Shown: positions 13,828 through 53,514 of the stretch, piece by piece | How the letters are laid out: the number at the start of each line of letters is the position of its first letter | Numbering within the stretch: the stretch's first letter is position 1 | Origin: an uncultured bacterium | GTDB taxonomy: Bacteria; Patescibacteriota; Minisyncoccia; Moranbacterales; UBA2206 | Reading direction: 5' to 3' | Length of the DNA: 64,000 nucleotides | Assembly: GCA_903937035.1 (NCBI GenBank) | Contig: CAIZXS010000005.1 | Location: 62,746 to 126,745, forward strand | Made by a program: the position numbers and the translations under genes | Notes under the pieces: generated by a model | What the model was told of the DNA's origin: nothing | Databases searched by the model: none | Seen by the model: the letters and a program-made list of their open reading frames with translations, nothing else

Positions 13828-16800
13828 CTATATCTCTGTTACTCTTTCCACTTCCTCCAAAGTAGTCTCACCCTCTAAAACTTTCAAAATTCCATCTTGT
13901 GGCATTGTGATCATGCCTTCTTCCATGGCTTTTTGATTGAGTTCAGATGTGACTGCTCCTCGCATGACAGCTTCTTGGATTTCGCGGGAGAATGTAAATA
14001 TTTCACTGATGGTTGTGCGGCCCTTATAGCCAATGTGATTGCATTTATCGCAGCCATTGGGTTTGTGAATCTCTGATATTTCCGGGATTTCTACGCCTGC
14101 TTTTAGACTGATCGTTTTTAGGACTTTTTCCATCTTCTGTTTCTTTTCTTCAGTCGGAGCGATTTTTATTTTGCACTCACAGAGTGTGCGGACCAAGCGT
14201 TGAGCGATAAAAGCGTTGACTCCAGAGACAATATCCTCCGGTGCAACGCCCATATTGAGCATTCTAGCTACTGCTCCGGCAGCATTGTTGGTGTGGAGGG
14301 TGGAAAGTACGAGATGCCCCGTGAGAGCGGCTTGAACGGCAATGCTCGCGGTTTCATTGTCGCGGATTTCACCAATCATCATTATGTCGGGATTTTGGCG
14401 AAGCAGGGCGCGCAGGGCTGTGGAGAAAGTATAACCATCTTTTTCGCTGACGGGAGTTTGCAAGATACCTTCCATCTGATATTCGATTGGATCTTCCACG
14501 GTGATGATTTTGATTTCAGGATTTTTAATTAAATTCAAAATAGCATAGAGTGTAGTGGTTTTCCCGCTGCCAGTCGGTCCAGTATTCAAGACGACGCCAT
14601 TTGGTTTTGATACTTCAATTTTTATTTTTTCCAAATTTTGCTTTCTGATTCCTAGCTTATCCAAGTTCAGCTCCACAGATGATTTACTGAGAAGTCGCAT
14701 TACAACTGTTTCTCCAAACCCACCCAAAATTATAGACACACGGATGTCAACAGTCTTTTCTTTTAATTCTGTTAACTCTTCATCAAAACTGATACTAAAG
14801 CGACTATCGATTACACCTTGCCTCGCTTCAGTTTTCACGCCACTGAGCAGCTTGATCTGGCCCAAAAAGGTCGTGTATTCAGTAAGAGGAAGAGAGGCGA
14901 TTGTTTGGAGGATGCCATCAATGCGGAAGCGGATTTTGACGCTTTCCTTTTCTGGTTCAATGTGAATGTCTCCTACACTCAAAATTTGAGCAGCGGAAAA
15001 AATGATCTTAATGGTGTCTGTGATTTTTGTTCCAACAAGGAGCGTTTGCATTTTTTCAAAATCATTAACATTGTCCTTGGTTTTGTCAAAAAACTCCTTT
15101 TTAATCGGCAAGGTACTGCCTAGGATTTGTGACATTAATTTTTCATAAATACTTTCCAAAAAGTCCCCTTGTCCAGTGACTTTTTTCACCTCGTCAATGG
15201 AGGTGACACCACTTACGGCTTTTAGGATTCCATCTTGGAGCATTGTTACCATGCCTTCTTCAAGAACGGCCATCGTTATTTCTGTTTCACCAGCCAAATC
15301 AAGAATCAGTTTTTCTGTTTCCGGACTAATTGTGAGAACTTCAAAAATACCCATTCGTCCTTTATAACCAGTATTACCACATTTAAGGCAACCTTTTGGG
15401 CGATAGAGTTGATCAATGCTTTTGGGAATTTCCACTTTCGCTCGTGGAGAAATGATGGATAAAATTCTTTTGATTGAATCAATTGTTTCTTTGGCGGGAA
15501 CATAGGATTCTTTGCAGCTACAAAGCTTGCGAACTAGTCGTTGCCCGATAACGGCGTTTACTGCTGGGGCGATGAAAGAAGGCTTGACGCCCATTTCAAC
15601 GAGACGGGGAATGGAGGCAATTGCACTATTGGTATGAAAAGTGGAAAGCACGAGATGTCCAGTGAGGGCAGAGTTGATGGCGATGTCAGCTGTTTCATCA
15701 TCGCGGATTTCACCAACTAGAATAATATCTGGATCTTGACGCACGATTGCGCGAAGACCGGTGGCAAAAGTGTAGCCACGAGCTTTTTCGATCTGAGTTT
15801 GGGAGACTCCTTTGACTTGGTACTCGATTGGATCTTCGATGGTGATAATCTTTTTATCTGGAGTGTTTAGCTTGCTGATAATGGCATAAAGAGTGGTAGT
15901 TTTTCCGCTGCCAGTTGGCCCTGTAGTGAGGATCATGCCATTTGGGGCTTCGATTTGCTTTTGAACTGTTTCATAGGCTAATCCCTGCAATCCGAGCTGC
16001 TCAATGTTGACATTGATCGAATCTGGATCAAGGAGTCGCATTACGATGGACTCTCCAAAGCTGCCAGGAATCGATGAAGCGCGGATAGCAATTTTTTTAT
16101 TTGATAGATTGACCTCAAAAGTTCCGTCTTGCGCCATATCAGAAAGATTGAGTTTCATGCCAGACATCATCTTGATTCTTGTCGCGATTCTTTTGTGGAT
16201 ATTGAGTGGAAAAAAAGCCACATCCTGGAGTACTCCGTCGATTCGATAGCGCAAGCGAAAATCTTTTTCTTCTGGCTCAATGTGAACATCGGATGCTCCT
16301 AGTGAATATGCTCCGGCCATGATGGTGTTCATGACGTCGGTTATAGGCATTTCCTTGATTCTGTCTTTTAGGACAATCAGGTTTTTTAGGGCTGTTTCAA
16401 ATTCACCAAGTTCGCTGTCATCAATTGTTAGACTTAACTGATCAAGGATTTCAGCGAAAACAATTTTTTTGTATTTTTCCAAAACTCGATCAAAGTTGTA
16501 ACTTGAAATAACAAAGAGTTTTGTTTGTATCCCGAGTTTTTCGGAAAAAGCTTTAAGGAATTCTCTCGTGTCTTCTCTCGTGGGGTCGGTGGTTACGATT
16601 GTGGCAAGCTTGCTTTTTCGTTGGATGGCGGCAATGCCGAATTTTCTGGCAGCACTTTCTTCAATCAATTTCAAGCTATCAATGGAAACGGGAACAATGT
16701 TGGTGTCAATATAGGGGAGTTCAAGTTGGGCAGCAAATTGCGCTGTCTTTTCCTCTTCTGATTGATGCTGCAGCTTGGAAACTAATTTGCTTGAAGTGGC

Positions 16801-23530: not shown

Positions 23531-23679
23531 TGTCATCCTGAGCGTAGCGTAGTGGAGTCGAAGGATCTACCTTGCGCCATCTAGAGCCTGATTTATATTT
23601 GCAAAGCTTAGGGTGGTGACTAGCAGATCCTTCGACTGCATAAATTTCCTGGTGAAAATTTATTCCGCTCAGGATGACA
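23531..23679. repeat. Repeat family A, copy 1 (inverted-repeat element, ~149 bp)
   Basis: Starts tgtcatcctgagcgtagcgtagtggagtcgaaggatct and ends agatccttcgactgc...cgctcaggatgaca. The 14-bp termini are perfect reverse complements, and inner arms gtcgaaggatct/agatccttcgac are also complementary. Confidence 0.7.
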
Positions 23680-26979: not shown

Positions 26980-28785
26980 ATGAACTATATGAAAAAAATT
27001 GCTCTCGGTTTGATTTTAATGGCTTCTGTTTTTTTATCAAATAACGTTGAGGCGCGGACAAATGTCATGGACTGGTACCTTAAAAATTTTGAGTCAGAAA
27101 TTAAGGTCAATAAGGATTCAACACTTCTCGTTACGGAAAAAATCACCGCTGATTGTGGCAATGCCTCTGGTAAGCATGGAATTTTTCGGACCTTGCCGAC
27201 AGTTTTTCGAACGACAGATAAAACAATCGCAATGCCGATTGAGCTTCTCGGTATCACAGATTTTAATGGCAATAGTTTGCACTATTCCACGCAAACTGAT
27301 TATTCAAATAAAACAGTAACTTGGAAAATTGGTGATCCTAACCGAACGGTGACGGGTGAGAATAATTATCTCATAACGTATAAAGTTAAAAATGCCGTTC
27401 TTTTTGATAAATCCGATTTTGATGAATTATATTGGAATTTGAATGGTAATTTTTGGGATCTGGAAACCGACAGTTTCACTGGCAAAATAGTCCTTCCATC
27501 AGAAATCACAAAAAGCAACACTCAAGTTGATTATTATACTGGCAGCTTGAATAGTAAGGGAAAGGATGGGGCTAGCTATTCTTGGCTTACTAATAATATT
27601 TTACAGTTTAAATCCAATAAGACTTTGTTGGTTGGCGAAGGCATCACAGCCTCTATTGCGTTCCCCAAAAATATTATTATGCCGTATGTGCCAACTTTTT
27701 GGGAAAAGTATGCGTTATATTTATGGTTAATTATCCCGCTTGTAGCGTTTGCTATTTGTTTTAGTGTTTGGGATAGATATGGAAAAGATCCGGAAGGTAA
27801 AAAAACAATTATCGCTGAGTTTGATATTCCTGAGAAGCTTTCTCCTTTGGAGCTCGGAACACTTTTCACTAATGGAAAACTGAAGACGGAGTTTATATCT
27901 GCCTCTATCATTAACTTGGCAGTTAAAAAAGTAATTCAAATTGAACAGACGGAAGGACTAGATTCTCTCAATGTTGGTTTGGCGAAAGAGGGAATTTCGA
28001 AACTTTCCGATGGGCAAAAATCTTTTGCAGATAAAGCTTTGAATTTCTTTCATATTGGGGAAGATTTTCGCTTGAAAATTATCAATAGAGATTTGATTTC
28101 AGAACTGGCAAGTCCTGAAAAAAAGTTAATACAGGAAATGTTTGGTGCAAAGGATGAAATCATGCTTTCCGGACTCAAAAATGAATTTTACAAAAGCCTT
28201 CCTGAGATTAAAAAGGTGACGTTGGATAGTCTAGAAAAAAAGCAGTTGATTGAAAAAACCGGCCTGACTTTTCAGATGATTTTTCTGGTTGCCGGATTTA
28301 TTTTAGCCTTTTCAACCTTTATTTTTACATCCATCTCTCTTTCAATTTTGCCTGCCATGATTTTGACTACGATTATGGTTTTTATTTTTTCCTTTTTAAT
28401 GCCCAAGAGAACGCCTGCTGGAGCTGAGGTGTATTGGAAAACTAAGGGTTTTAAGCTTTATATGGAAACAGCCGAAAAATATCGCGAGCAGTTTAATGAA
28501 AGGGAAAATATTTTTGAAAAACTTTTGCCCTATGCCATTATGTTTGGCATGACGAAATTGTGGATCAAAAAAATGAAGGAAATTTATGGCGAAGACTATT
28601 TCAATGCCTATCACCCGATGTGGTTCGTAGGCGGCAGCATGGCAAACTTTGATGCCGACAGTTTTGCTTCGCGTGTGGACAGTCTTTCTTCGGCTATGGC
28701 TTCTAATGTTTCTTCTGGCTCAGGTGCTGGCGGCGGCGGAGGATCAGGTGGAGGCGGAGGCGGGGGAGGCGGGGGAGGATGGTAG
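26980..28785 (+). CDS. DUF2207-family membrane protein with C-terminal poly-glycine tail
   Basis: 601 aa. Signal peptide, large extracellular N-domain, TM helices near residues 240 and 440-480, C-terminus SGSGAGGGGGSGGGGGGGGGGGW, typical of DUF2207. Confidence 0.6.
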   Translation: MNYMKKIALGLILMASVFLSNNVEARTNVMDWYLKNFESEIKVNKDSTLLVTEKITADCGNASGKHGIFRTLPTVFRTTDKTIAMPIELLGITDFNGNSLHYSTQTDYSNKTVTWKIGDPNRTVTGENNYLITYKVKNAVLFDKSDFDELYWNLNGNFWDLETDSFTGKIVLPSEITKSNTQVDYYTGSLNSKGKDGASYSWLTNNILQFKSNKTLLVGEGITASIAFPKNIIMPYVPTFWEKYALYLWLIIPLVAFAICFSVWDRYGKDPEGKKTIIAEFDIPEKLSPLELGTLFTNGKLKTEFISASIINLAVKKVIQIEQTEGLDSLNVGLAKEGISKLSDGQKSFADKALNFFHIGEDFRLKIINRDLISELASPEKKLIQEMFGAKDEIMLSGLKNEFYKSLPEIKKVTLDSLEKKQLIEKTGLTFQMIFLVAGFILAFSTFIFTSISLSILPAMILTTIMVFIFSFLMPKRTPAGAEVYWKTKGFKLYMETAEKYREQFNERENIFEKLLPYAIMFGMTKLWIKKMKEIYGEDYFNAYHPMWFVGGSMANFDADSFASRVDSLSSAMASNVSSGSGAGGGGGSGGGGGGGGGGGW

Positions 28786-28791
28786 GAATTG

Positions 28792-28926
28792 TGTCATTCT
28801 GAGCGTAGCACAGCGGAGTCGAAGAATCTGCTTGCTATAATCCCAATTTTTACTATAAATCACTAAGTCAGTAATAATGGTCAGTAGGTCCTTCGGCTAC
28901 GTCTGAGTACAGATTTCGCTCAGGAT
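28792..28926. repeat. Repeat family A, copy 2 (3-prime end degenerate)
   Basis: tgtcattctgagcgtagcacagcggagtcgaagaatctg ... tcgctcaggat. It lacks the terminal gaca. Lies between the DUF2207 stop and the DUF1653 start. Confidence 0.6.
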
Positions 28927-28934
28927 AAAAAATT

Positions 28935-29153
28935 ATGCAACTCGGAAAATATCAACATTACAAAGGAAAATATTATGAAGTGTTAGGCGTGGCACATCAT
29001 AGCGAAACATTGGAGGAATTGGTTGTTTATCGTGCGCTCTATGTCAGCCCTGAATTTGGAGAAAATGCATTATGGGTTCGACCGAAGAAAATGTTTTTGG
29101 AAGAGGTTATTATTGAAGGCAAAAGAGTTCCGCGGTTTGAATTTATAAAATAG
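28935..29153 (+). CDS. DUF1653-family small protein
   Basis: 72 aa. MQLGKYQHYKGKYYEVLGVAHHSETLEELVVYRALY...WVRPKKMF matches my recollection of the DUF1653 pattern. Confidence 0.5.
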   Translation: MQLGKYQHYKGKYYEVLGVAHHSETLEELVVYRALYVSPEFGENALWVRPKKMFLEEVIIEGKRVPRFEFIK

Positions 29154-29190: not shown

Positions 29191-29213
29191 TATAAAACAG
29201 ACAGCCCGCCAAA

Positions 29214-29385
29214 ATCCACCTCACCCTTTTACCTTCAAGCCGTTGAAGGTAAAATCTCCTTAGCAAGGAGAGGGGACGGAACGCAGAGATGTTGGGTGTA
29301 TTTATGGTGATTTTAGAATGGAAAGATGCTGAAGTAGGCCTTCTCCTTATCAAGGAGAAGGTGGTCGAAGACCGGATGAGGTGAG
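29214..29385. repeat. Repeat family B, copy 1 (extended, opposite orientation to copies 2 and 3)
   Basis: atccacctcaccc ... ctccttagcaaggagagg ... ggccttctccttatcaaggagaaggtggtcgaagaccggatgaggtg, the reverse complement of the B3 consensus plus extra hairpin accttcaagccgttgaaggt. Confidence 0.65.
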
Positions 29386-29386
29386 T

Positions 29387-30325
29387 TTACTTCTGACACC
29401 CCGCGCAGTAAAATACACTCCTTTGCGCCATCTTTTTACGCAAAACTAATCCACCGCATTTGGCAGGACAAGGCAATTTATCTCGACGATAAACTTTAAG
29501 CATTTCTTGAAAATGTCCCGGTGCGCCGTCTGAATCGCGATAATCACTGTCCGATGTTCCGCGCATTTTGATGGCGAGCTTTAGAATTTTTTTTGTTGCA
29601 AGAAAGATTTTTTTTCGTTCAACTTTTTCGAGACTTTCATTTTTGCGCTCCGGCAGAACGCCAGCAGTAAAAAGAATTTCACTGCGATAGATGTTGCCGA
29701 TGCCCGAGACGATGCTTTGGTCGAGAAGAAAAATGCCAATGAGCATTTTTGGTTTTGCATCCAATAGTGCGTTAAATTTAGCGAGAGTGAAATCGGTGCT
29801 CATAGCATCAATCCCAATCTTTTTTTCCGCTAAATATTTTTCGAGCGCTTTGGTTTCCAAGAGTCGCATCGTGGCAAATTTCCGCAAATCAGAAAATTCC
29901 AGAGTCCTATTCTTATTCAAATACCAAATGTGATGAATATATTGATTAACTTTGTCGTCGAAGAAACTCACCTCATCCGCCCTACAGGCACCTTCTCCTT
30001 GGTAAGGAGAGGGGCTTTTTGTATTTTGTTCCCTCTTCTTACTGAGGAGATGGTTAGGGTGAGGTGGATTTGACTTCACGAGCAAATGCCCAGTCATCCT
30101 CAGATGAATATGCAAAGACTTTCCGCCAGAAAGATTGAGAAATATATTTTTTCCCACTCGCTCAGCCAAAAGAATTTTTTTGTTTTTCATCTCACGCTTA
30201 AATTTTTCCAAAACCGTACCTTTAATGGCAGATGGAAAATCAGACCAGAATTTTGTAATGGTAGCGCCTTTAATTTTCTTATTCAAATCCGCCACAACTG
30301 TTTCAACCTCAGGTAGTTCGGGCAT
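29387..30325 (-). CDS. mutM: Formamidopyrimidine-DNA glycosylase (Fpg/MutM) carrying an in-frame ~34-aa insertion derived from repeat family B
   Basis: 312 aa. MPELPEVETV N-terminus (catalytic Pro2, Glu3), H2TH region and C-terminal zinc finger CPAKCGG...CAGCQK. Residues ~83-116 (VKSNPPHPNHLLSKKREQNTKSPSPYQGEGACRA) are encoded by the repeat B copy. Confidence 0.8.
   Translation of the reverse strand: MPELPEVETVVADLNKKIKGATITKFWSDFPSAIKGTVLEKFKREMKNKKILLAERVGKNIFLNLSGGKSLHIHLRMTGHLLVKSNPPHPNHLLSKKREQNTKSPSPYQGEGACRADEVSFFDDKVNQYIHHIWYLNKNRTLEFSDLRKFATMRLLETKALEKYLAEKKIGIDAMSTDFTLAKFNALLDAKPKMLIGIFLLDQSIVSGIGNIYRSEILFTAGVLPERKNESLEKVERKKIFLATKKILKLAIKMRGTSDSDYRDSDGAPGHFQEMLKVYRRDKLPCPAKCGGLVLRKKMAQRSVFYCAGCQK
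29968..30068. repeat. Repeat family B, copy 2 (inside the fpg coding sequence, in frame)
   Basis: cacctcatccgccctacaggcaccttctccttggtaaggagaggggc...ccctcttcttactgaggagatggttagggtgaggtgga, with terminal inverted repeats cacctca/tgaggtgg and two internal palindromes. Confidence 0.7.
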
Positions 30326-30329
30326 AAAT

Positions 30330-31094
30330 TTAGCTTAATTGATTATTCAACTCTGGCGATTTGCTTGGAATCATATGCCACATCGTCCTGTGGATGCTCA
30401 AAAGGCTTTCATAAATCTTCTGGCTTTCGATAATTAGTCCAAACTGTTCTTCGAAAGACATGATGCCAACTTTATTATATCCATAAAGATTGATGCTGAC
30501 TGTAATTTTGAAAAATTCTGAATTGACCGCCTTGAACCGGCGGAATTGTACAGTATTCTTTTTGGCAATTTCTTTGAATTTTTCGGTGTCTGGATGGAGA
30601 CTATTGACCCAGACCTTATTCTTTATTCGAATAGGGATGTAAATATCATCAACCCATTTGGCATCAAAATTTGAGAGCCATGTTTCTGAATACCAAGAGT
30701 ATGTCTCTTTGACCGAGCTATTGGCGATAGCCCTAAATACCTCCTTGATTCCTTCTTCCCCTTCAAAAAAGCGAATGATTGGCTTTTTATCAATCAAGTT
30801 GGTGATGGAAAGCAGTTGTGGCATTAGTTTATCGACTGCTTCCATTTTTTCTACCAGCGTATGTTTAATTTTCTTAGGATTTTCGGCGTAGTATATTGAC
30901 TTCCCTTTCTTTTTATAGTGGCTAACCAGCCCCTTCTTGCCCAGTGAGGTCAAAACTAAATAGACCGTGGTTCTTTTGACTCCTGATTTTCTCGATAAGC
31001 GTTCGACGCTGGTCTCTCCTAGTTCCAAAGCGGCCAAATAGACTTTGGCCTCGTTGGCGCTGAGATCTAGCTTTTCTAGTTCATTAAAAAGCAT
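30330..31094 (-). CDS. TrmB-family transcriptional regulator (paralog 1 of 3)
   Basis: 254 aa. N-terminal wHTH LDLSANEAKVYLAALELGETSVERLSRKSGVKRTTVYLVL typical of TrmB. C-terminal effector domain. Confidence 0.6.
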   Translation of the reverse strand: MLFNELEKLDLSANEAKVYLAALELGETSVERLSRKSGVKRTTVYLVLTSLGKKGLVSHYKKKGKSIYYAENPKKIKHTLVEKMEAVDKLMPQLLSITNLIDKKPIIRFFEGEEGIKEVFRAIANSSVKETYSWYSETWLSNFDAKWVDDIYIPIRIKNKVWVNSLHPDTEKFKEIAKKNTVQFRRFKAVNSEFFKITVSINLYGYNKVGIMSFEEQFGLIIESQKIYESLLSIHRTMWHMIPSKSPELNNQLS

Positions 31095-31308
31095 AATTTG
31101 ATTTTATTGTTTATTTTGTCATCAAAAATGACAACAAATATAGTCTAGCATAGAGGCTTAATTGAAGCAAGTATAGTGCTATAGGAAAAGAGTATATCCA
31201 TAATCTATGGACAATTTAACAATTTTCTAGTATACTACGCTGTTAGGATAAATTGTCCAAAGGATCCAGATAAAATCTTAGCCAAAATAATTATTAAGCC
31301 AAAAACCT

Positions 31309-31509
31309 ATGCAAATGATCTTGAACAGCGGAATGCGGATTGATGATCCTCCGGATATGTCGGAAAAAACCAGAAAATATCTTAATCAGTTCTGGCACTT
31401 TCCTTCCAAGGAGGATGTGATAAAAGAAAAAGATAAGCACTATAACTTTGAATGCAAGAGAGAATGGCAAAGAAGAGATGATCAGACTGAAAATGAAATT
31501 AATCCGTAG
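31309..31509 (+). CDS. Conserved small protein (MSEKTRKYLNQFWHFPSKED family), paralog 1
   Basis: 66 aa. 52 of 66 residues align with ORF 33704..33907, including identical MSEKTRKYLNQFW.FPSKE. Conserved upstream context taagcNaaaaaccNatg. Confidence 0.5.
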   Translation: MQMILNSGMRIDDPPDMSEKTRKYLNQFWHFPSKEDVIKEKDKHYNFECKREWQRRDDQTENEINP

Positions 31510-31958
31510 ATTCTAGTGGAAGATAGAAAGCACTTCTGTCTTCCCTAGAGTTTATCTGGGTCTAGATGGCTCGCAGTTACTTAAAAACAGAATAATTCGA
31601 CCAAGGCTCGGATTTGCATAGTGCGGATTCATTTGGGAGTTATTTTGGCTGAGAAAACATTATCGCCTGTATCGGTGGGATAGAAATGGAGCAGGGGGAA
31701 AATGGGAAACAGAGAGGATGTGAGTAGGATGAATAGTCCAGAGTATTCAGCTTACTGTAGTTATTGGGTTAATTCTAATAACTCTTATTCAAAGAAAAGT
31801 AATAATAAGGACGAAGAGCCATGGCACCTGAGGGGCTATGATAGGGATGACCCCTATACGCGTCACCTCAAGGGGGAGGATTAATAACAGGCTTGAGGCA
31901 ATCAAGTGAGAATCATCACAATTTATTCGTTCCATTTAATTAATATAAGGAGGTGGTC

Positions 31959-32549: not shown

Positions 32550-33296
32550 CTATTTTTTTGCCATCTTCCAAAGTAAATCAAAATAGGATAGATAGGATTT
32601 GCGAAAATCTTCGTTTTTTATTTCAATGCAAAACATATCTTCACCACTGCCTGTGCCATAGGAATTGAGGGTGATGGAATCGTGCCAGATGTCAAAAGAT
32701 GTCGGTGAGGAATAGCCTTCCGGCAAAAAGCGATATTCCGAATTGGCGCGTTTCACGAGCTTCGCTTCTTCGGAGCCGATATTGCCAAAAATCAGCCTTG
32801 TTTTAATATTTTTTTTCGTGCGGATGCGATTGCTTCTTTCAAATACGCCGGATTTCTGCATCAATTCTTTGAACCGCATTGCTGCGCCAGTGACAACCAG
32901 ATATTCAGAATTGATTGGCATTAAATCATCTTTTCGCATAATCAATTCGCGATAAGCTTTTGCGCCTTCATAGATCCTGATTTCTTGGCCTTTCTTCTGG
33001 CCGACCAATTTTGCATTGATTTCTTCCATCAAATTCTTAGCCACAACTTCTTGTTGCCTAATGTTATCCAAAATATTTTGCGGATTGGCGATGCGAAAAA
33101 CCAAGCGGTTATTTTTGGTGGTTTTTAGCACCATTTTTTTATTCTCGAGTCCATCCAGCGCGTCATAGGCAACTTGTCGATGCATTCCTAGTTTTTTGAT
33201 TAAGGGGCCAACCGTATTTTCGCCCAATTCTAAAAGCGCATTATAGATTTTAATCTCATTGGGTGTGAGTCCAAGTTGTTTTAGTTCGTTTTCCAT
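32550..33296 (-). CDS. TrmB-family transcriptional regulator (paralog 2 of 3)
   Basis: 248 aa. LGLTPNEIKIYNALLELGENTVGPLIKKLGMHRQVAYDAL wHTH. C-terminus ends ..YFDLLWKMAKK like paralog 3. Confidence 0.6.
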   Translation of the reverse strand: MENELKQLGLTPNEIKIYNALLELGENTVGPLIKKLGMHRQVAYDALDGLENKKMVLKTTKNNRLVFRIANPQNILDNIRQQEVVAKNLMEEINAKLVGQKKGQEIRIYEGAKAYRELIMRKDDLMPINSEYLVVTGAAMRFKELMQKSGVFERSNRIRTKKNIKTRLIFGNIGSEEAKLVKRANSEYRFLPEGYSSPTSFDIWHDSITLNSYGTGSGEDMFCIEIKNEDFRKSYLSYFDLLWKMAKK

Positions 33297-33310
33297 AGAT
33301 TTTAATTAAA

Positions 33311-33414
33311 TCCACCTCATCCGGCCTACGGCCACCTTCTCCTTGGTAAGGAGAAGGGCTCTTTTTGCATTCGTTTCCTCTCCTTACTAAGGAGAGGGCT
33401 AGGGTGAGGTGGAT
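33311..33414. repeat. Repeat family B, copy 3 (intergenic)
   Basis: tccacctcatccggcctacggccaccttctccttggtaaggagaagggc...cctctccttactaaggagagggctagggtgaggtgga. Terminal inverted repeats plus two internal perfect palindromes (ccttctcctt-ggt-aaggagaagg and cctctcctta-ct-aaggagagg). Confidence 0.7.
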
Positions 33415-33703
33415 TCTAAAAAAGTCTTATTTAATTATCATCACCCCAAAACTGACCATATTTCAAAAATCCCTTATTCTGGCTTAATTATACATCAGTT
33501 TAAAACTTATGTCAACATCGTCGCAATAATACTGTTGACAATAATCGATTTATCTGGTAAGCTTTTGAGTCAAGTTGAGAGAGGGCTCTCGAGGAGACAG
33601 GGTAATTTAACCTTATTGTTGAGTCAAGATATTCAAAATAAGCCTTAAAAAGGGCATATGTGAATAGAGAAGCTTTACAATGCTAATCTTTAAGCTAAAA
33701 ACC

Positions 33704-33907
33704 ATGAAAATGCTCTTAAATAATGGAAGTGTAATCAATAATGCTCCAATTATGTCAGAAAAGACCAGAAAATATCTTAATCAGTTTTGGCGCTTTCCTT
33801 CCAAAGAAGAAACTGAAAAAGAGAAGGAGAAATATTATATCGTTGAATGTAGTAAAAAGTCGCAAACAACAGATGAATTTGTAGTTGAGCATGATATCTG
33901 CATATAG
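33704..33907 (+). CDS. Conserved small protein (MSEKTRKYLNQFWRFPSKEE family), paralog 2
   Basis: Aligned start MKMLLNNG matches MQMILNSG of paralog 1. The ORF track starts 8 codons earlier at 33680. Confidence 0.5.
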   Translation: MKMLLNNGSVINNAPIMSEKTRKYLNQFWRFPSKEETEKEKEKYYIVECSKKSQTTDEFVVEHDICI

Positions 33908-34008
33908 GTTCCAGTCGAAGACAGAAAAAGCTTCTGTCTTCCCTGGAGTTTATCTAAATTCTTAGGTAGCTCGTAGTTTTTGAACATTTAAAATTGGAGG
34001 AATGAAGA

Positions 34009-42088: not shown

Positions 42089-43336
42089 TTTATACTCTAA
42101 TTCTAGCAGGTTTTTGCATCTTTGTCAACATTGAAAATGACAATATGCAAGTTAAGATAAGCCAAAATAGTCTTTTATGTTAGGGGGAATGGTGACAAAA
42201 GTCTAAAAATGCCATAGTTTCTATGGACAAAATGGTGAAATTCTGATATACTACGCAGTCAAGATGAATCACCGAAAAGAGAAGGTGGTCGAAGAAGAGA
42301 GAATCTTCACTTGATAAACAAGAGTACCTTAAATCAAATAATGTATCCCAATTGTCCTGGAATCTCCCAATCTTCGAAAGAAGAAAAGGAATCCAAGACG
42401 AAACGGATCATTGAATGGCACAACGAAACAGCCGGCATACCAAAGTCCTATGCAATCCTAAAAGGATAAAGAAGAGAGAAAAGATAGTTCCATAAATCAA
42501 TATCATTGATTTGTAGAATTTCTTTAGGACACGGCCAACAAGGTTGTTTCACATTTCGCGAGCCATCGCGAGATGGAAAGTGGTCTCCGGTTCTAATTTT
42601 TTTTTGGAATCGGAAGCAGGCTTTCCAAAAAAAGCCTAAAGTACATTTGATTTACAAATAGTAAAGAAGAAGAGAGCTAAAGATGAATTTTTTTTCAAAA
42701 AAAATACCAATTCGTCTTTAGAAAAATGTCAGTGATAGTTCATTTTGATTTTTCGTCAAAATCTCTCTTCTTCGAAAATCAAAAGAGCTTGTCTCACAAA
42801 TGGTTTTCATCGCGAAAGTTTCCATTTTTGAGCGAAAATTGTGAAAGACGAGGAGGAATATTGAACATATTCCGACGAATCTTGAACAATTTGCAGCCAA
42901 AAATGGGAGCTTGTAGTAGGAAAGCATTTGCGAGACAGGCTCTATATCACTGGCATTTTTGTGAATTGAAGGAGAGAGCAATTCATAAAAAAAGAAATGT
43001 TCTTTAACAATTGAATAGAAATTAGATTGATTTTTCCCCGCAAGGTTCTTTTTCGAAAAGAATCTGACGGGGGAAATGTCAATTAAAAAAAACTCTTTTT
43101 TCGAAAGTAAAGTTGCGATAAATCCTTGAGTAATGGGACGCGACGAAGGCAATGGAGTTTTGTCGGAGTAATTGTTTAATAAAAGTCCACCAAAAAAAGG
43201 ACATAATAAAAGCGAGAAAGACGAGACAGAGGAGCCACGGGAAAAGGAAAAAAATTGGACTTTCAGTGAAGTGCTTAGTCAGCACTGAGAAAGTCCCGGC
43301 CACATAGCGGCCGTAATTCTTCGAAAGGAGGATGCT

Positions 43337-49639: not shown

Positions 49640-50344
49640 ATGAAGTATTATATTGCCGTTTTCTTTTTAGTGTTATTTGCTTTTGGCGCTCCCTGTTTTT
49701 CATTGGCTGGAATGAGCAGTCAAAATTTTTCCATCCAAGCTGATGCGATTGATGTTGGAGGTACGCGTTCTTCATCTGGGGGAGTTTCTTTGAATGATTC
49801 GCTCGATGAGCTGGCAACGGGAGAATCAAGGAGTCTTTCTTTTATGGCGGATATCGGTTTTTGGCCAATGGTGGGCAATGATGAGGTTATCTCTTTCACC
49901 GTGACAGACGCGATAGCTAGCTTGGGAACACTTAGTCATTCGGCAGTGAGATATGACACAGCTACTTTCCGCGCTGCAACAACAGCCAAGGGCGGTTATT
50001 CTATCCAGTTTTTTGGGGTACCATTAACTTCTGGGGGTAATTTGATTAGTGCGCTGAGCACACCAACGCCTTCTGCGACTGACACGGAACAGTTTGGGTT
50101 TAACTTAGTGGCCAATAATTCCCCAGCGGTGGGCGTTGACCCTGTGGGTGGATCAGGTCAAGCTGCAGTTGGCTATAATACGCCAGATAGCTTCAAGTTT
50201 GTCTCTGGTGAAACAATTGCTCAAGCAGCTTTGCCCTCTAACTTTACCAACTACACAATGTCAATCATCAGTAACATTACAGGAATAACTGACGCGGGAA
50301 ATTATGCCACAAACCTAACCGTTGTTGTGACAGGAAGGTATTAG
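49640..50344 (+). CDS. Secreted beta-rich surface subunit with N-module MSSQNFSIQAD.. (type 2 domain)
   Basis: 234 aa. Signal peptide. The N-module is shared with 52762..53514. C-terminal strand GNYATNLTVVVTGRY. Confidence 0.45.
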   Translation: MKYYIAVFFLVLFAFGAPCFSLAGMSSQNFSIQADAIDVGGTRSSSGGVSLNDSLDELATGESRSLSFMADIGFWPMVGNDEVISFTVTDAIASLGTLSHSAVRYDTATFRAATTAKGGYSIQFFGVPLTSGGNLISALSTPTPSATDTEQFGFNLVANNSPAVGVDPVGGSGQAAVGYNTPDSFKFVSGETIAQAALPSNFTNYTMSIISNITGITDAGNYATNLTVVVTGRY

Positions 50345-50436
50345 TTGATTTTGAAAAAAATAGCTTTACTCTTTTATTATTTTTGGTATAATAAAATAGA
50401 TGGAGAAAATATAAATAATATATTAGTAAAAACAAA

Positions 50437-51522
50437 ATGCAACAAAAAAAAGGATTCATTGTTGGCTTGGGGGTTATGGTGCTTATTACGCTTGGAGTGT
50501 TTATTCTGAAAGCTCAAGCCGCATCACTTACAACAGCAAGAGTTTATCTTAATCGAAATGCAGAAAATCTCACCACAGGCGTGGCACACGAAATCCAATT
50601 TACCCCAGCGACAGCTGTCTCTGGTGGGGCGGGAGTGAATAAAGTAATTTTGGTTTTTCCAGATGCTGATGATGGTAAGTGGTGTGCCACTGCGGGAGCA
50701 CTTGTTGTCACGACTACAGGACTAAAAGATACAGCTACTGCGCTTCCTGGCACTCCGACAGCTGCTTGCGTAAAAGGAGTGGGCGCTGCCAGCTACGACA
50801 CTATCACAATCAGCGCCGTTGATGATTTATCCGCTGCAACACTTTATGGTGTAAAACTGACAGATACTGGAGTGGGAAAACTCGGTACGCCGGCTAATAC
50901 AACATCAGGCATCATCACGATGAAAACCAATAACAATACGATTGACATTGATAGTACTAATTTTGTTATTGACATTCTTGCTAGCGATCAAATTTCTATC
51001 TCAGGTGTGGTTGACCCAACTTTGACTTTTTCTATTTCAGATAGCTCAATTGGTTTTGGAACAATTACTTCAGCTGCTGTGAGATATGTCACAGCAGATT
51101 TGCTGGGTAGCGCGACTGAAGCGACCAACGGGTTGCCATCGACAGTAACTGTTTCAACTAATGGTACTGGTGGTGTTGTAGTAGAAATCAAGGATACTAA
51201 TGCTAATTCAGCTTCTGGTCTCTATAGCAATGCTGGATCAGGAAAGACGATCGCTTCTGCTGCTAGTACTGCTGTTACCTTAGGGAATGAAGGTTTCGGA
51301 GTATATGGAAAAAATTCCAGCAACATTACGCTCAGCGAAGCGTTTGACAATGACAGCACCGCTGATCTGGCAATTAGCACAACTTTTCAAACTATTGCTT
51401 CAACAGCTGGTCCTGTTAGTTCCGGCTCATTTGATATCTCAGCCAAGGCTGGCGTGTCCGGTTCGACTCCTGCTGGTAGCTATGCCGATACGCTGACAGT
51501 TGTTGCAACAGGAAAATTCTAA
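50437..51522 (+). CDS. Secreted/anchored beta-rich surface subunit (type 2-like domain, larger)
   Basis: 361 aa. N-terminal TM/signal. Region TFSISDSSIGFGTITSAAVRYVTADL parallels ISFTVTDAIASLGTLSHSAVRYDTATF of the preceding gene. C-terminal GSYADTLTVVATGKF. Confidence 0.45.
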   Translation: MQQKKGFIVGLGVMVLITLGVFILKAQAASLTTARVYLNRNAENLTTGVAHEIQFTPATAVSGGAGVNKVILVFPDADDGKWCATAGALVVTTTGLKDTATALPGTPTAACVKGVGAASYDTITISAVDDLSAATLYGVKLTDTGVGKLGTPANTTSGIITMKTNNNTIDIDSTNFVIDILASDQISISGVVDPTLTFSISDSSIGFGTITSAAVRYVTADLLGSATEATNGLPSTVTVSTNGTGGVVVEIKDTNANSASGLYSNAGSGKTIASAASTAVTLGNEGFGVYGKNSSNITLSEAFDNDSTADLAISTTFQTIASTAGPVSSGSFDISAKAGVSGSTPAGSYADTLTVVATGKF

Positions 51523-51545
51523 ATTAATCCTTACTCTTAAATCAA

Positions 51546-52535
51546 ATGACTGCGAAAAATAAATTTCTTGCTTTTCTTAGAATCGGTGCATTTCTTTACT
51601 TTATTTTTCTGGGAAAAGGAGCATTTGCTCTCACAATTTCTCCTCCAGTGAGGGAGATGACAGGGGACCCAGGAACAAAAATCAGTGGGATTATAAAGCT
51701 TTACAATGAAACCAATAAGGACCTTTCCGTTACTCCTTCGCAGTCAGACTTTGGCGCCAAGGAAACTGGTGACGGCGAGCCAGAATTTTTTGAGTTGAGC
51801 GGAGAAAAATCAAAAGATTTAGCCAGTTGGATTAAGGTTCCCGCTGGTCCTTTTGCAGTTAGATCGCTTGATTGGCAAAATATTATTTTTGAAATTGATA
51901 TCCCAAAAGATGCTGAGCCCGGAGGTCACTATGCTGCAGTTTTCTTCAGTCCGCAGCAATCAGAGAAAGACAATAATGGATCAGTTAGTGTTGACTATAG
52001 AACTGGGACATTGATTCTTCTCACGGTTTCGGGAAAAATGAATGAAAGTGGAAATTTGAAAAGTTTCTCTCTGAAAGATGGCAAAAAATTCTATGATCAC
52101 ATTCCGGTTAATTTTGAATTGAATGTTGAAAACAAGGGCAATGTTCATTTTAAACCAGCGGGAAATATCATTGTTAAAAGTATGTTTGGCGGAAATATCG
52201 CTGAGCTGCCAGTCTTGAAGGTTGATTCTGGTGGAAATGTTTTGCCCAGAAGCAGCCGTCGATTTGAGATTGTTTGGGGTGATTCGGATGAAAAGAAAAT
52301 GCCTAAAACTTTTTGGGAAAAGGCTAGATATGAATGGGCTAATTTTTATGTCGGAAGATATAGTGCGCTTGCGAGTGTGACGCTTCCTGGAAGCGGTCAG
52401 GTGACTTCCAATGTTTCATTCTGGGTTTTTCCTTGGCAGTTGCTTATTGTGCTGGCCATTGGACTGGTTGTGTTATTGTTTGCGTTTAGAACGTATAACC
52501 GTTGGATTATCAAAAAAGCCAGAGAGAAAAAATAA
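51546..52535 (+). CDS. DUF916/DUF3324-like cell-surface protein with C-terminal TM anchor, paralog 2
   Basis: 329 aa. EPGGHYAAVFFSP, FELNVENKGNVHFKPAGNIIVKS, C-terminal TM LLIVLAIGLVVLLFAF plus basic tail. Collinear with 48648..49622. Confidence 0.45.
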   Translation: MTAKNKFLAFLRIGAFLYFIFLGKGAFALTISPPVREMTGDPGTKISGIIKLYNETNKDLSVTPSQSDFGAKETGDGEPEFFELSGEKSKDLASWIKVPAGPFAVRSLDWQNIIFEIDIPKDAEPGGHYAAVFFSPQQSEKDNNGSVSVDYRTGTLILLTVSGKMNESGNLKSFSLKDGKKFYDHIPVNFELNVENKGNVHFKPAGNIIVKSMFGGNIAELPVLKVDSGGNVLPRSSRRFEIVWGDSDEKKMPKTFWEKARYEWANFYVGRYSALASVTLPGSGQVTSNVSFWVFPWQLLIVLAIGLVVLLFAFRTYNRWIIKKAREKK

Positions 52536-52581
52536 AAAAGTATTAAGGATTTCTATTTATATAAAAAATAACCCCCCCTAT

Positions 52582-52720
52582 TGTCATTCTGAGCGTAGCG
52601 CAGCGAAGTCGAAGAATCTGCTATGAGTTATTCTAATCCTTGCTATATTATAGAAAGCTTATGGTAGTGGATGGCAGATCCTTCGACTGCGTCCGAGTAC
52701 GGACTTCGCTCAGGATGACA
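52582..52720. repeat. Repeat family A, copy 3
   Basis: tgtcattctgagcgtagcgcagcgaagtcgaagaatctg ... gcagatccttcgactgcgtccgagtacggacttcgctcaggatgaca. Preceded by a C7 homopolymer. Confidence 0.7.
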
Positions 52721-52761
52721 TTTTTATTTAAATGCGCAAGTCCTTTTTTCAAAAGTTCGCT

Positions 52762-53514
52762 ATGAAAATTTATTTTGCTCTATTTATTCTTTTCTTTGGT
52801 CTTGGGACTGCCTCGGTTTTTGCTGCAATGAGCAGTCCAAATTTTTCTATTCAAAGTGATGATGTTTCCGTGGCCGGTTCTCGTTCTGAATCGTCCAATT
52901 TTCGTGCTGAGGATACTTTGGGCGAGTTAGCTACCGGAGATTCATCTAGCGCTTCCTATCGCTTGCGATCGGGCTATCAAAGTATGCAAGAGGTGTATCT
53001 TGCACTAAGCGCTCCATCGGATGTGACGATGACCCCAACTATTCCTGGTGTGAGTGGTGGCTCTGGCAATGGTTCTGTTTTTTGGACTGTGACAACAGAT
53101 AATCTAGCAGGCTATTCTTTTTATGTTAGAGCAGGAGCAGCCCCAGCTCTCACTAAATTAGGTAACCCTGGCGTATTTTTTGATGACTATACTCCTGGCG
53201 CAGCTCCTGATTATGCCTGGCAAGTTGATTCGACAAAAGCCGAATTTGGCTTCACCCCGGAAGGGTCTGATATTGTGCAAAAATTTCGTGATAATGGATC
53301 ATCTTGCAACACAGGAACATTTGATACGCCAGATGCTTGTTGGTATAATTTTGTTGCATCTAACCCGGGCGAGCTGATTGCTCACTCAGCCGGTTCCAAT
53401 CATCCAACTGGCATTGCCACCACCGTCAAGGTGGAGGCTCAATCGAATTCTTCTCATTTGCAAGAGGCTGGGACCTATCAAGTAACAATCACCGTGACAG
53501 CATTGGCAAATTAA
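52762..53514 (+). CDS. Secreted mosaic surface subunit: N-module of the 49640 type + C-terminal domain of the 47966 type
   Basis: Start taken at MKIYFALFILFF (signal peptide). The ORF track starts 10 codons earlier at 52732. AAMSSPNFSIQSDD...GELATGDSSSAS parallels 49640. LALSAPSDVTMTP...GTYQVTITVTALAN parallels 47966. Confidence 0.45.
   Translation: MKIYFALFILFFGLGTASVFAAMSSPNFSIQSDDVSVAGSRSESSNFRAEDTLGELATGDSSSASYRLRSGYQSMQEVYLALSAPSDVTMTPTIPGVSGGSGNGSVFWTVTTDNLAGYSFYVRAGAAPALTKLGNPGVFFDDYTPGAAPDYAWQVDSTKAEFGFTPEGSDIVQKFRDNGSSCNTGTFDTPDACWYNFVASNPGELIAHSAGSNHPTGIATTVKVEAQSNSSHLQEAGTYQVTITVTALAN

Follow-up and report, generated by a model that had tools for sequence, protein, structure and literature searches.

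The 64-kb stretch of DNA analysed here (the window) contains three copies of a structured repeat, c1, c2 and c3, which lie in and near the gene for formamidopyrimidine-DNA glycosylase (fpg) and beside a TrmB-like gene (Table 1). c1 occupies the interval between the fpg stop codon (29387-29389) and the terminator hairpin that follows a convergent DUF1653 gene, c2 is lodged within fpg, and c3 separates the TrmB-like gene (32550-33296, - strand) from small + strand ORFs. The original prediction had placed the copies at 29214..29385, 29968..30068 and 33311..33414, the second of them inside fpg; the sequence and a covariance model confirmed these sites with slightly wider limits, and the 312-aa fpg ORF does run through c2 in frame. 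Terminal inverted repeats were correctly recognised in the copies, as was the extra hairpin of c1 (ACCTTCAA-cggc-TTGAAGGT). The two internal palindromes, described as perfect throughout, are perfect in c3 and c1 and degraded in c2.

Table 1 Repeat copies, their parts and related features (positions in the window)
Feature	Position	Strand	Basis or remark
c1, long variant	29211-29389	-	covariance model 89.9 bits; alignment A3
c1 purine tail GGGTGAGGTGG, third-strand mirror of the P4 purine arm and right terminal inverted repeat	29216-29226	-	sequence; alignment A3
c1 extra hairpin P5, TTTTACCTTCAA-cggc-TTGAAGGTAAAA, within second loop of right half	29227-29254	-	optional module in other copies
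c1 hairpin P4: pyrimidine arm, loop, purine arm	29255-29275	-	hairpin scan
c1 central insert, about 60 nt	29276-29338	-	alignment A3, columns 61-118
c1 left half, read on + strand	29339-29385	-	triads 9/9; P2 covariation
c1 hairpin P3	29339-29361		left half
c1 mini-hairpin P2, GGTCGAAGACC	29363-29373		left half
c1 left-half tail, GGATGAGGTGAG	29374-29385		
fpg, formamidopyrimidine-DNA glycosylase, 312 aa (host gene)	29387-30325	-	Pfam PF01149 and PF06831
c2, inside fpg and antisense to it	29963-30072	+	covariance model 108.7 bits; ORF reads through
c2 tail complement	29969-29978	+	
c2 P2	29979-29989	+	
c2 P3	29991-30013	+	
c2 spacer	30014-30030	+	
c2 P4	30031-30053	+	
c2 tail	30057-30067	+	
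c3, most intact copy	33307-33417	+	covariance model 119.5 bits
c3 left end	33312-33334	+	
c3 tail complement, CCACCTCATCC	33312-33322	+	
c3 mini-hairpin P2, GGCCTACGGCC	33323-33333	+	
c3 hairpin P3, CCTTCTCCTT-GGT-AAGGAGAAGG	33335-33357	+	sequence; hairpin scan
c3 central spacer, pyrimidine-rich	33358-33377	+	
c3 right half, BoxC/PIT type-A-like motif	33378-33413	+	8/9 triads
c3 hairpin P4, CCTCTCCTT-ACT-AAGGAGAGG	33378-33398	+	
c3 mirror purine tail GGGTGAGGTGG, after second loop GCTA	33403-33413	+	
17-mer GAGAAGGTGGTCGAAGA, exact, common to c1	42279-42295	+	sequence match

The repeat motifs are more frequent in the window than expected by chance. CACCTCATCCG has three exact matches and a one-mismatch site at 38105, compared with 0.42 matches expected at up to one mismatch, and CTCCTTNNTAAGGAG has 10 strand-matches, that is, five hairpins, all within c1-c3, compared with 0.09 expected. 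A scan of the 64 kb for pyrimidine/purine hairpins found no family member beyond the three copies. The 17-nt recurrence near 42278, which had been suggested to be a decayed copy, is indeed an exact repeat with 0.01 occurrences expected by chance; its flanks contain no arm, tail or hairpin of the element and the covariance model finds no match there, and it may be a fragment or remnant of the element.

Every copy consists of two half-sites in inverted orientation, and each half-site runs in the order pyrimidine arm, loop, purine arm, second loop and mirror-repeat purine tail, the second loop being either plain or filled by a mini-hairpin. The tails are directed outward and double as the terminal inverted repeats, which are 11-14 nt long; the unit of about 110 nt has no coding capacity and is present in both orientations. 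The right-half second loop is TTA in c2 and GCTA in c3, and the left-half second loop holds the mini-hairpin. Among 17 aligned copies the four helices were 91-96% paired, P2 showed compensatory changes (GC<->CG, CG<->UA), and stem covariation lay above all 500 shuffles and every slid control. P5 of c1 is an optional module that recurs, with compensatory changes, at three other loci (L029, L068 and L098). The central insert of c1, which the original prediction had not picked out, is shared with a copy in another Moraniibacteriota genome (L111) that abuts a DUF559 gene; we inspected this insert as a possible remnant of such a gene and saw no convincing similarity.

The tails match the purine arms as third strands would. 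The purine arm and tail form eight of nine purine-motif triads in the right half of c3 and nine of nine in the left halves of c3 and c1 (in c1, P3 purine arm against tail), and because each tail mirrors its own purine arm, tail GGATGAGG stands beside arm AAGG and tail GGGTGAGG beside arm AGGG. Thus, a single DNA strand of a half-site could fold into a hairpin with the third strand laid on top. DNA secondary-structure folding of isolated half-sites gave local hairpins with the tail unpaired; the single-strand fold z-scores of c3 were -7.5 to -8.8, and RNA folds of the copies were also very stable, with z-scores of -6 to -9. We considered two other folds and rejected them. An outer stem in which the terminal repeats pair through a conserved T.G wobble, as in a strand-specific RNA, explains the fixed difference between them less well than the mirroring of arm by tail. 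One long P3-P4 hairpin, the minimum-energy fold of the RNA, needs mismatched cross-pairing between palindromes that are each perfectly self-complementary, and it is further disfavoured by loops that lack covariation and by the local hairpins obtained in DNA folding. In a count of wobbles versus A.C mismatches, the local hairpins contained very few mismatches.

The copy inside fpg is translated as SNPPHPNHLLSKKREQNTKSPSPYQGEGACRADEVSF (codons 85-121) and lies in a loop of the N-terminal domain of Fpg. Residues 1-153 align to Pfam profile positions 1-117, and the protein therefore carries an insert of about 36 aa. In the structural model pLDDT is below 50 over residues 91-127, the blocks at 81-90 average 68, and confident strands (79-85 and 130-136) flank the region, so the segment encoded by c2 is predicted to be a low-confidence loop without a confident fold. 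The insert is absent from many Fpg orthologues and present at the same place in orthologues of 58-75% identity, and at least 15 contigs, from several samples, encode the identical Fpg protein. The search for a clean empty c2 site gave none that could be accepted, since the loop of the insert-free orthologues is a different, unalignable sequence; c2 may be a recent insertion, or an old insertion followed by loss elsewhere. A FemAB-like protein and a class I aminoacyl-tRNA synthetase contain in-frame copies as well, indicating that copies persist within genes where one reading frame stays open.

The repeat is not confined to this genome. Our genome scan matched at least 118 loci, 70 of which were true elements, and relatives were found in Moraniibacteriota, other CPR bacteria, Bacteroidota, Bdellovibrionota, Proteobacteria and Firmicutes. 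The proliferating repeat with hairpins and inverted ends that had been foreseen is thus borne out by many copies in related and unrelated genomes, CPR genomes included, and their presence varies between close relatives. The prediction lacked three points: the BoxC/PIT-type mirror-repeat ('intrastrand triplex') motif of each half, known before from E. coli, the tie to a DUF559 endonuclease gene, and the absence of target-site duplications. In relative L199/L200 the c1 site is empty, c2 is absent and a diverged partial copy stands at the c3 site; relative L201 keeps c2 as the only one of the three and has a different repeat at the c1 site. We rejected the L199 locus as an empty site for c3: it holds the partial copy and other related motifs at that spot, and c3 is therefore not a simple new insertion. 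A phage origin was likewise set aside, with six pattern matches in total in a viral collection. Either orientation towards the neighbouring genes is seen, and within operons most copies are antisense.

DUF559 proteins are small Vsr-like PD-(D/E)XK endonucleases with invariant D/E/D/H residues (alignment A4), and their family is very large. Genetic evidence implicates one member, from Caulobacter, in repair as a Vsr-like nuclease (PMC12907096). DUF559 genes lie between or right beside the half-sites far more often than chance, and this statistical association is strong and holds across phyla. Among loci chosen by the repeat, 11 of 70 had a DUF559 gene within 400 nt, compared with 1 of 48 chance loci. 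Among 80 loci picked by the DUF559 protein alone, a perfect pyrimidine/purine hairpin of at least 7 bp was present within 150 nt upstream in 62/76 and downstream in 52/69, compared with 0/23 upstream and 0/23 downstream of control ORFs and a background of 0.034 per 156 nt. At 32 of 65 loci the two flanks of the gene had in common an exact inverted repeat 10 nt or longer (0 of 62 after shuffling), and a perfect mirror tail was found in 108 of 318 instances, as against 21 and 5 in controls. All six CPR DUF559 homologues (71-91% identical to the L111 protein) have copies of the present repeat, family B, directly upstream (55-117 bits), and dnaK is near five of the six. In every case examined, including genes between paired copies, the repeat-flanked gene was DUF559 (PF04480). 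In Ferruginibacter it follows a conserved upstream gene, and in Chitinophagaceae it occupies precisely the central spacer of an element that is complete in other respects, the slot that corresponds to the c3 spacer. Two arrangements of gene and half-sites therefore exist, one with the tails beside the gene and one with the gene in the central spacer, and no single simple mechanism yet covers both. The 64-kb window holds neither a DUF559 gene nor dnaK, and hence the link between the nuclease and c1-c3 runs solely through membership of the repeat family.

The same pairing is found in Escherichia coli. BoxC/PIT (potential intrastrand triplex)/TMECO repeats are found in E. coli and other Proteobacteria (Bachellier 1999; Hoyne and Maher 2000; Holder et al. 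2015, PMC4666352). The DUF559 gene of E. coli K-12 is ycjD, which has a BoxC/TMECO copy at its flank; it is located between fabI and sapF, and TMECO no. 9 adjoins it. As a single copy, ycjD occurs in 3378 of 5426 E. coli genomes. In an evenly spaced sample of genomes, the median number of BoxC repeat places was 18 where ycjD was present (n=37) and 4 where it was missing (n=22), a contrast that is confounded by phylogeny because there are very few independent losses of ycjD, namely in one O157-like and one B2/Nissle-like clade. Next to a BoxC copy, E. coli also retains the remnant of the 3' end of a second ycjD.

Taken together, c1-c3 are copies of a small, selfish, structured non-coding DNA repeat, probably a REPIN-like non-autonomous element served by a DUF559 nuclease, the enzymology of which we infer. 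A resident single-copy nuclease would recognise and nick the folded half-sites, and nicking would start the copying or maintenance of dispersed copies. Such a system would resemble the REPIN-RAYT pair with a different enzyme, and the window copies would be its non-autonomous members, the enzyme gene residing elsewhere in the genome, by prediction close to dnaK and between family-B copies. To our knowledge, PD-(D/E)XK nucleases have no strand-transfer activity, and DUF559 is not a known transposase. The broader proposal, that BoxC/PIT-type repeats and DUF559 constitute a second REPIN-like replicator system, independent of RAYTs and extending from E. coli to Bacteroidota and CPR bacteria, in which a Vsr-like single-copy nuclease drives or maintains the spread, is one we put forward tentatively, as quite possibly correct.

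The most serious competitor, which we nevertheless regard as unlikely, is that DUF559 is a free-standing homing-type endonuclease gene that lands on palindromic repeats, while the repeats themselves arise or spread by a different route, for example through slippage during replication, through recombination or with the help of some other enzyme. A Vsr-like homing endonuclease (PDB 3r3p, PMC3424549) belongs to the DUF559 clade, and the Chitinophagaceae gene placed precisely within an element, as well as the second ycjD 3' end remnant, would fit such landings. However, DUF559 hardly resembles an invading gene, being single-copy and placed at a conserved chromosomal site (near dnaK in 5/6 CPR loci, behind a conserved gene in Ferruginibacter, next to fabI and sapF in E. 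coli), and target choice alone does not predict fewer repeats where ycjD is missing. It is improbable that the repeat recurs through its usefulness as a functional RNA or as a signal in transcription, be it a terminator, a hairpin that stabilises mRNA or a decoy ribosome-binding site. The stable RNA folds, the T-rich stretch after P3 in c2 and c3, the resemblance of the purine arms and tails to Shine-Dalgarno sequences, and the sense orientation of c1 at the fpg 3' end would suit this explanation, but the mixed and, in operons, mainly antisense orientation and the copies inside ORFs would not. As summarised by Holder et al., E. coli PIT elements had neither promoter nor terminator activity in earlier work, and purine-motif triplexes do not form in RNA (PMC4666352). 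A known RNA family was rejected as well, as Rfam returned no match at gathering score in the whole window and chance-level microRNA matches at permissive settings.

Slightly less probable still is a classical MITE, an internally deleted insertion sequence with terminal inverted repeats (AATCCACCTCA/TGAGGTGGATT) through which a DDE-type transposase would recognise and mobilise it. The length of these ends, the size of the unit, its lack of coding capacity and its two orientations are all MITE-like. As to a parent element, units with the same ends in Chitinophagaceae enclose a DUF559 gene. None of the genes examined between paired copies is a transposase, all being DUF559, and the 'inverted repeats' differ at a fixed position, a difference that follows from each end mirroring its neighbouring arm and not from transposase binding. 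Target-site duplications, which the original prediction proposed to look for at the copy boundaries, were absent from the 20 copies compared (mean flanking direct repeat 3.4 nt, versus 3.43 nt for permuted partners), and the element is therefore not a classical MITE. A protein-level module, with peptide NPPHPNPLLSKER..SPSPYQGEGGRRPDEV common to unrelated proteins, is scarcely credible: one peptide does occur in Fpg, the FemAB-like protein and the aminoacyl-tRNA synthetase, but this explanation fails because the stems co-vary at base-paired positions and intergenic positions account for two of the three copies in the window and for most of those elsewhere, and it is further opposed by the low confidence of the predicted Fpg insert and by the many Fpg orthologues that lack it.

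If the REPIN-like replicator reading is true, it would give DUF559/YcjD a function and the BoxC repeats an origin, both of which have been open since the 1990s. The cataloguing of BoxC/PIT/TMECO repeats in E. coli goes back some thirty years, and the association with ycjD in E. coli K-12 makes the role of DUF559 and the origin of BoxC approachable in a model organism. For CPR genomics, the present findings show that reduced genomes harbour an actively turning-over repeat, able to lodge in frame in repair and translation proteins. The repeat probably also breaks assemblies, because many DUF559 homologues are located on contigs of 1-2 kb.

Several known systems share features with the window repeat. 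Like Rickettsia palindromic elements (RPE; PMC10969869), which are palindromic repeats of 100-150 nt, it occurs in frame within unrelated housekeeping genes, and it adds a conserved peptide to a tolerant surface region, which in the Fpg model is the low-confidence loop. In contrast to RPE, with which it was compared by description, most of its copies are intergenic, and an associated nuclease is not mentioned for RPE (PMC10969869). The homing endonuclease I-Bth0305I (PDB 3r3p), which belongs to the PD-(D/E)XK clade of DUF559 (PMC3424549), offers the precedent of a small nuclease of the Vsr/DUF559 clade in selfish DNA. However, the DUF559 genes studied here are single-copy, syntenic and outside introns, and they are bordered by repeats that are also found alone in many copies.

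The likeness to the REPIN-RAYT system (Bertels and Rainey 2011, PMC3116915; bioRxiv 10.1101/2021.07.10.451892) lies in the repeat and in its relation to the gene. Both repeats are units of about 100 nt with two inverted palindromic halves, mostly dispersed between genes; in both, one chromosomal gene of fixed location is present as a single copy and has its cognate repeats at its flanks. The lower repeat numbers in E. coli genomes that lack ycjD may reflect a REPIN-like decay of the repeat population after loss of the gene, and they come from a few clades with few independent losses. The enzyme is different, being a Vsr-like PD-(D/E)XK nuclease (DUF559) and not a RAYT (IS200-like HUH tyrosine transposase). 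The window halves also bear a mirror-repeat tail and lack the conserved GTAG/CGTC head, with GTAG present in some P2 loops alone (c2 and c3) and GAAG in c1 and many other copies.

The closest likeness is to BoxC/PIT/TMECO, although the window copies depart from the strict TMECO consensus CCCTCNCCC-N3-6-GGGNGAGGG-N3-GGGNGAGGG (PMC4666352) in having arms CCTTCTCCTT/AAGGAGAAGG and CCTCTCCTT/AAGGAGAGG (CCYTCTCCTT) and tails GGATGAGGTGG and GGGTGAGGTGG. Their tails point outward, whereas those of E. coli doublets point inward, and the second loop of one half is enlarged to a co-varying mini-hairpin. TMECO has been reported as always intergenic, whereas the window family also occurs in fpg, FemAB-like and aminoacyl-tRNA synthetase genes, and its host is a CPR bacterium. 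Published work on BoxC/TMECO found no associated mobility gene (PMC4666352), in contrast to the DUF559 gene associated here, and Holder et al. observed no stable triplex in duplex DNA or in vivo (PMC4666352). Nevertheless, the half-site plan is shared, including a 3-nt second loop and the mirror purine tail (G*G, A*A or T*A triads); GGAGAGGG-TTA-GGGTGAGG of the window right half is nearly identical to TMECO type A CCCTCTCCCTTGAGGGAGAGGGTTAGGGTGAGGGT (PMC4666352); both families form inverted doublets that join a type A (TTA) half to a different half; and in both, presence or absence varies between close strains. Judged by sequence, the window repeat is thus best classed as a relative of the BoxC/PIT/TMECO family, distinct from the E. 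coli family itself.

Family B proved to be a genuine repeat; it adds a new CPR relative to a repeat class that is already on record but unexplained. The three copies originally predicted in the window (c1, c2 and c3) were recovered by a direct and inverted repeat search, in which 29964-30070 pairs with 33308-33415, and the opposite orientation of one copy was borne out by the reversed pairing of 29326-29392 with both of these stretches. When aligned, the copies have common ends and three hairpins, a small one and two larger ones. The sequence CACCTCATCCG has three exact sites and a single one-mismatch site at 38105 (0.42 expected at no more than one mismatch), the hairpin core CTCCTTNNTAAGGAG is confined to c1-c3 (0.09 expected), and neither the family-B covariance model nor a separate hairpin scan of the window found any further member. 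A decayed copy had been suspected at about 42278; the exact 17-mer repeat at 42279 exists and is improbable by chance, but every other feature of the element is absent there. Two extras distinguish c1, namely a hairpin, ACCTTCAA-cggc-TTGAAGGT, and an insert of about 60 nt in its centre; both were seen again in copies from other genomes, the hairpin there with compensatory changes. The stretch separating fpg from the DUF1653 gene consists mostly of c1, and a TrmB-like regulator gene has c3 on its upstream side.

Family-B copies, neighbouring genes and other repeats
Feature	Position	Strand	Remark
c1	29211-29389	-	covariance model limits
c2	29963-30072	+	covariance model limits
c3	33307-33417	+	covariance model limits
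fpg	29387-30325	-	convergent with DUF1653 gene
DUF1653 gene	28935-29153	+	convergent with fpg
End of DUF2207-family membrane protein	28720-28785		glycine run (..GSGAGGGGGSGGGGGGGGGGGW)
Second-family repeat	23531-23596, 28792-28926, 52582-52716		three copies
Duplicated TrmB-like module, first	30330-31557		TrmB-like 254 aa, small ORF 66 aa
Duplicated TrmB-like module, second	32550-33955		TrmB-like 248 aa, small ORF 75 aa
Hairpin TTAAGATTCCATTTTGGAATCTTAA	41358-42058		three copies, spacing 376 and 291 nt
Internal/paralogous coding repeats	57978-58485; 13838-15945; 49703-52892; 56313-59008; 60008-62277		192-nt tandem units, duplicated blocks 1.34 kb apart, recurring DGKY-type motifs
Mini-palindrome CCTGCCGGCAGGCAGG	L024:3237-3375; L088; L115 (loci of other genomes)		also Fpg orthologues P0002, P0007, P0008, P0011, P0014

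Other repeats share the window. The second family, TGTCATTCTGAGCGTAGC..GAAGAATC with a second conserved block about 20 nt further, is probably the family A of the original prediction; one copy lies between the DUF2207 and DUF1653 genes, about 290 nt from c1, and a related repeat, GTCATTCCCGCGAAGGCGGGAATCC..GGATTCCCGCCTTCGCGGGAATGAC, stands at the c1 site in the relative L201. Each duplicated module comprises a TrmB-like regulator, a conserved hairpin-like block and a divergent small ORF that includes MSEKTRKYLNQFW.FPSKE; c3 is within the second module only. The TTAAGATTCCATTTTGGAATCTTAA hairpin differs from family B, and no long ORF was found in two examined sub-stretches of its region. Rfam searches of both strands of the whole 64 kb returned no family at gathering score, hence not a single tRNA, rRNA or riboswitch.

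On the strand starting with CACCTCATCC, a family-B copy runs through AATCCACCTCATCC, the 4-bp mini-hairpin P2, hairpin P3 (CCTTCTCCTT-nnn-AAGGAGAAGG), a pyrimidine-rich spacer, hairpin P4 (CCTCTCCTT-nnn-AAGGAGAGG), a short loop (TTA or GCTA) and GGGTGAGGTGGATT. Across 17 copies, pairing reaches 91-96% in four helices and the compensatory changes in P2 are genuine; covariation in the helices exceeds that of all shuffled and slid controls. The terminal arms had been described as inverted repeats, which they are, but with one fixed position mismatched, T versus G. This difference is not noise: each purine tail mirrors the adjoining purine arm, tail GGATGAGG adjoining arm AAGGAGAAGG (9/9 purine-motif triads) and tail GGGTGAGG adjoining arm AAGGAGAGGG (8/9). 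Each half thus combines pyrimidine and purine arms with a mirror purine tail, and the two halves of a copy lie one on each strand.

The idea of a proliferating repeat was also supported. Species-representative genomes scanned with the pattern CACCTCATCCN{8,14}CCTTCTCCTT gave at least 118 loci, against about 8 expected by chance (our own estimate from collection size), and 70 loci among the matches listed have the closing purine arm and count as true elements. Nearly identical elements of full length were found in several Moraniibacteriota MAGs, other Parcubacteria/Patescibacteria, one Bdellovibrionales MAG, one unclassified proteobacterial MAG and Runella, and half or shorter forms in Chitinophagaceae, Bacteroidales, Lachnospiraceae and Saccharibacteria. 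Two syntenic relatives were obtained via Fpg orthologues. The first (L199/L200; Fpg about 80% identical) has an fpg-DUF1653 gap of just 8 nt and an fpg without the insert; the second (L201/L202; 86%) keeps the fpg copy intact (127 bits), lacks c1 and c3, and holds an unrelated repeat at the c1 site. The c3 site in L199 contains a partial diverged copy and further related motifs, so this intergenic region is a long-standing repeat home and no fresh insertion site. No target-site duplication was found at family-B copies.

The fpg ORF stays open through c2, whereby the N-terminal domain gains about 36 residues, and contigs from several samples, at least 15 in all, encode the identical insert-bearing Fpg; the insert is therefore no assembly artefact. 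In-frame copies also occur in a FemAB-like protein and a class I aminoacyl-tRNA synthetase, all antisense to the element and all with the peptide NPPHPNPLLSKER..SPSPYQGEGGRRPDEV. The five closest Fpg orthologues carry the insert, a further one has it half-deleted, and it reappears at 75%, 62% and 58% identity; the rest are without it, some with other mini-hairpin peptides at the same loop. In the AlphaFold model, pLDDT is below 50 for residues 91-127, which span most of the insert (codons 85-121), and averages 68 in the 81-90 block; confident strands 79-85 and 130-136 flank the low-scoring stretch, so the insert is predicted to hang from a loop of the N-terminal sandwich. Rickettsia palindromic elements behave similarly within genes (PMC10969869). 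Separate from family B, the mini-palindrome CCTGCCGGCAGGCAGG (peptide LPAGRQ / PTGRQ) sits at the same Fpg loop in other lineages and also within the second loop of one family-B copy, indicating that small palindromes nest in one another.

The chief worth of family B is that it points to a candidate enzyme partner. In 4/4 loci from MAGs of four assigned lineages, the small ORF between two nearby repeat copies is DUF559 (PF04480), a Vsr-like PD-(D/E)XK nuclease domain. Of the 70 true-element loci among the matches listed, tblastn placed a DUF559 ORF no more than 400 nt from the repeat in 11, and one more such ORF adjoins another copy; chance loci give 1/48. The usual layout on the gene's sense strand is hairpin and purine tail, DUF559 gene, then tail complement and hairpin; in Chitinophagaceae, by contrast, the element is otherwise complete and the gene stands in its central spacer, the site being syntenic between Ferruginibacter species. 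In the reverse test, 80 metagenome loci were picked solely by DUF559 protein similarity. A perfect pyrimidine/purine hairpin, 7 bp or longer and no more than 150 nt from the gene, was found upstream in 62/76 and downstream in 52/69, against 0/23 control ORFs on either side and a background elsewhere in these loci of 0.034 per 156 nt. An exact inverted repeat of at least 10 nt is common to both flanks in 32/65 (shuffled, 0/62), and a perfect 8/8 mirror tail stands 3' of the hairpin in 108/318 hairpin-strand instances (controls, 21/318 and 5/305). Flank sequences vary by DUF559 lineage (e.g. CCCCCT..AGGGGG..GGGGGAGTT), indicating that each nuclease lineage has its own cognate motif. Among six homologues with DNA, 71-91% identical to the DUF559 protein of the Moraniibacteriota locus L111, a family-B copy (55-117 bits) ends 15-100 nt upstream of the start codon in all six, another lies at or over the stop codon in three, and the gene is directly downstream of dnaK in five. 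In this lineage, family B is thus the cognate repeat of a DUF559 gene that is syntenic and apparently single-copy; the 64-kb window contains no such gene and no dnaK. Close homologues (P0121-P0219) are mostly on contigs of about 1-2 kb, as expected if flanking repeats break metagenome assemblies, so DUF559 genes with repeats may be under-represented in MAGs. Locus L023, from a MAG labelled Bdellovibrionales, combines near-identical family-B copies with a DUF559 protein that shares about 70% identity with its Moraniibacteriota counterpart, either as a misbinned CPR contig or as a transferred unit.

Structure, family, turnover, lack of target duplication and tolerance within genes are established for the repeat, and its association with a conserved nuclease gene is tight and lineage-specific. 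The likeliest reading is that the DUF559 nuclease recognises half-sites, folded or duplex, and nicks them; the nick could start copy-and-paste through repair synthesis or gene conversion, or alternatively lead to biased repair keeping repeat copies intact. Twelve diverse DUF559 proteins share invariant D, E-x-D, H, D and R residues, which speaks for an active enzyme; the sole solved relative by sequence is 3HRL, an uncharacterised Neisseria protein. In the main rival reading, DUF559 would be a homing-type gene and the repeats its landing pads; the DUF559 clade includes Vsr and a homing endonuclease (PMC3424549). Each of the remaining readings (classical MITE, functional RNA, protein module) conflicts with one test or more.

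The family-B plan is that of E. coli BoxC, later named PIT elements and then TMECO, with the pattern CCCTCNCCC-N3-6-GGGNGAGGG-N3-GGGNGAGGG, a TTA second loop in type A and frequent inverted A+B doublets (PMC4666352). Type A GGGAGAGGGTTAGGGTGAGGG is almost identical to GGAGAGGGCTAGGGTGAGGTGG of the window. The window family, with outward-pointing tails, one second loop enlarged to a mini-hairpin and copies within genes, is a relative outside the strict E. coli consensus. K-12 ycjD carries a DUF559 annotation. Its start codon lies inside a 16-bp hairpin (outer 8 nt, CACCTCAT/ATGAGGTG), its final codons continue into CCCTCTCCC, and downstream follow a remnant of a second ycjD 3' end and then CCCTCGCCCCTCTGGGGAGAGGGTTAGGGTGAGGGG, TMECO no. 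9 of Holder et al. The remnant (GAGACGGTGCTGGAGAATATTC.., about 60 nt, L214:5250-5400 in K-12) looks like a relic of a second DUF559 gene. Holder et al. list fabI and ycjD as neighbours of no. 9 in their supplement, uncommented, and state that a mobility function near these motifs was never found (PMC4666352); full-text searches, with most subscription journals outside their scope, found no literature linking BoxC/PIT/TMECO-type repeats with DUF559. The gene is single-copy, nearly always chromosomal and present in 3378/5426 complete E. coli genomes, and motif places per genome have a median of 18. Among 59 evenly spaced chromosomes searched with the whole fabI-sapF interval, the 37 with ycjD have 10-25 repeat places (median 18) and the 22 without it 2-13 (median 4; 11-13 in seven O157-like genomes, 2-4 in 15 B2/Nissle-like ones, one with 9), a difference that rests on very few independent losses. 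REPIN populations show the same pattern after loss of their RAYT transposase (bioRxiv 10.1101/2021.07.10.451892).
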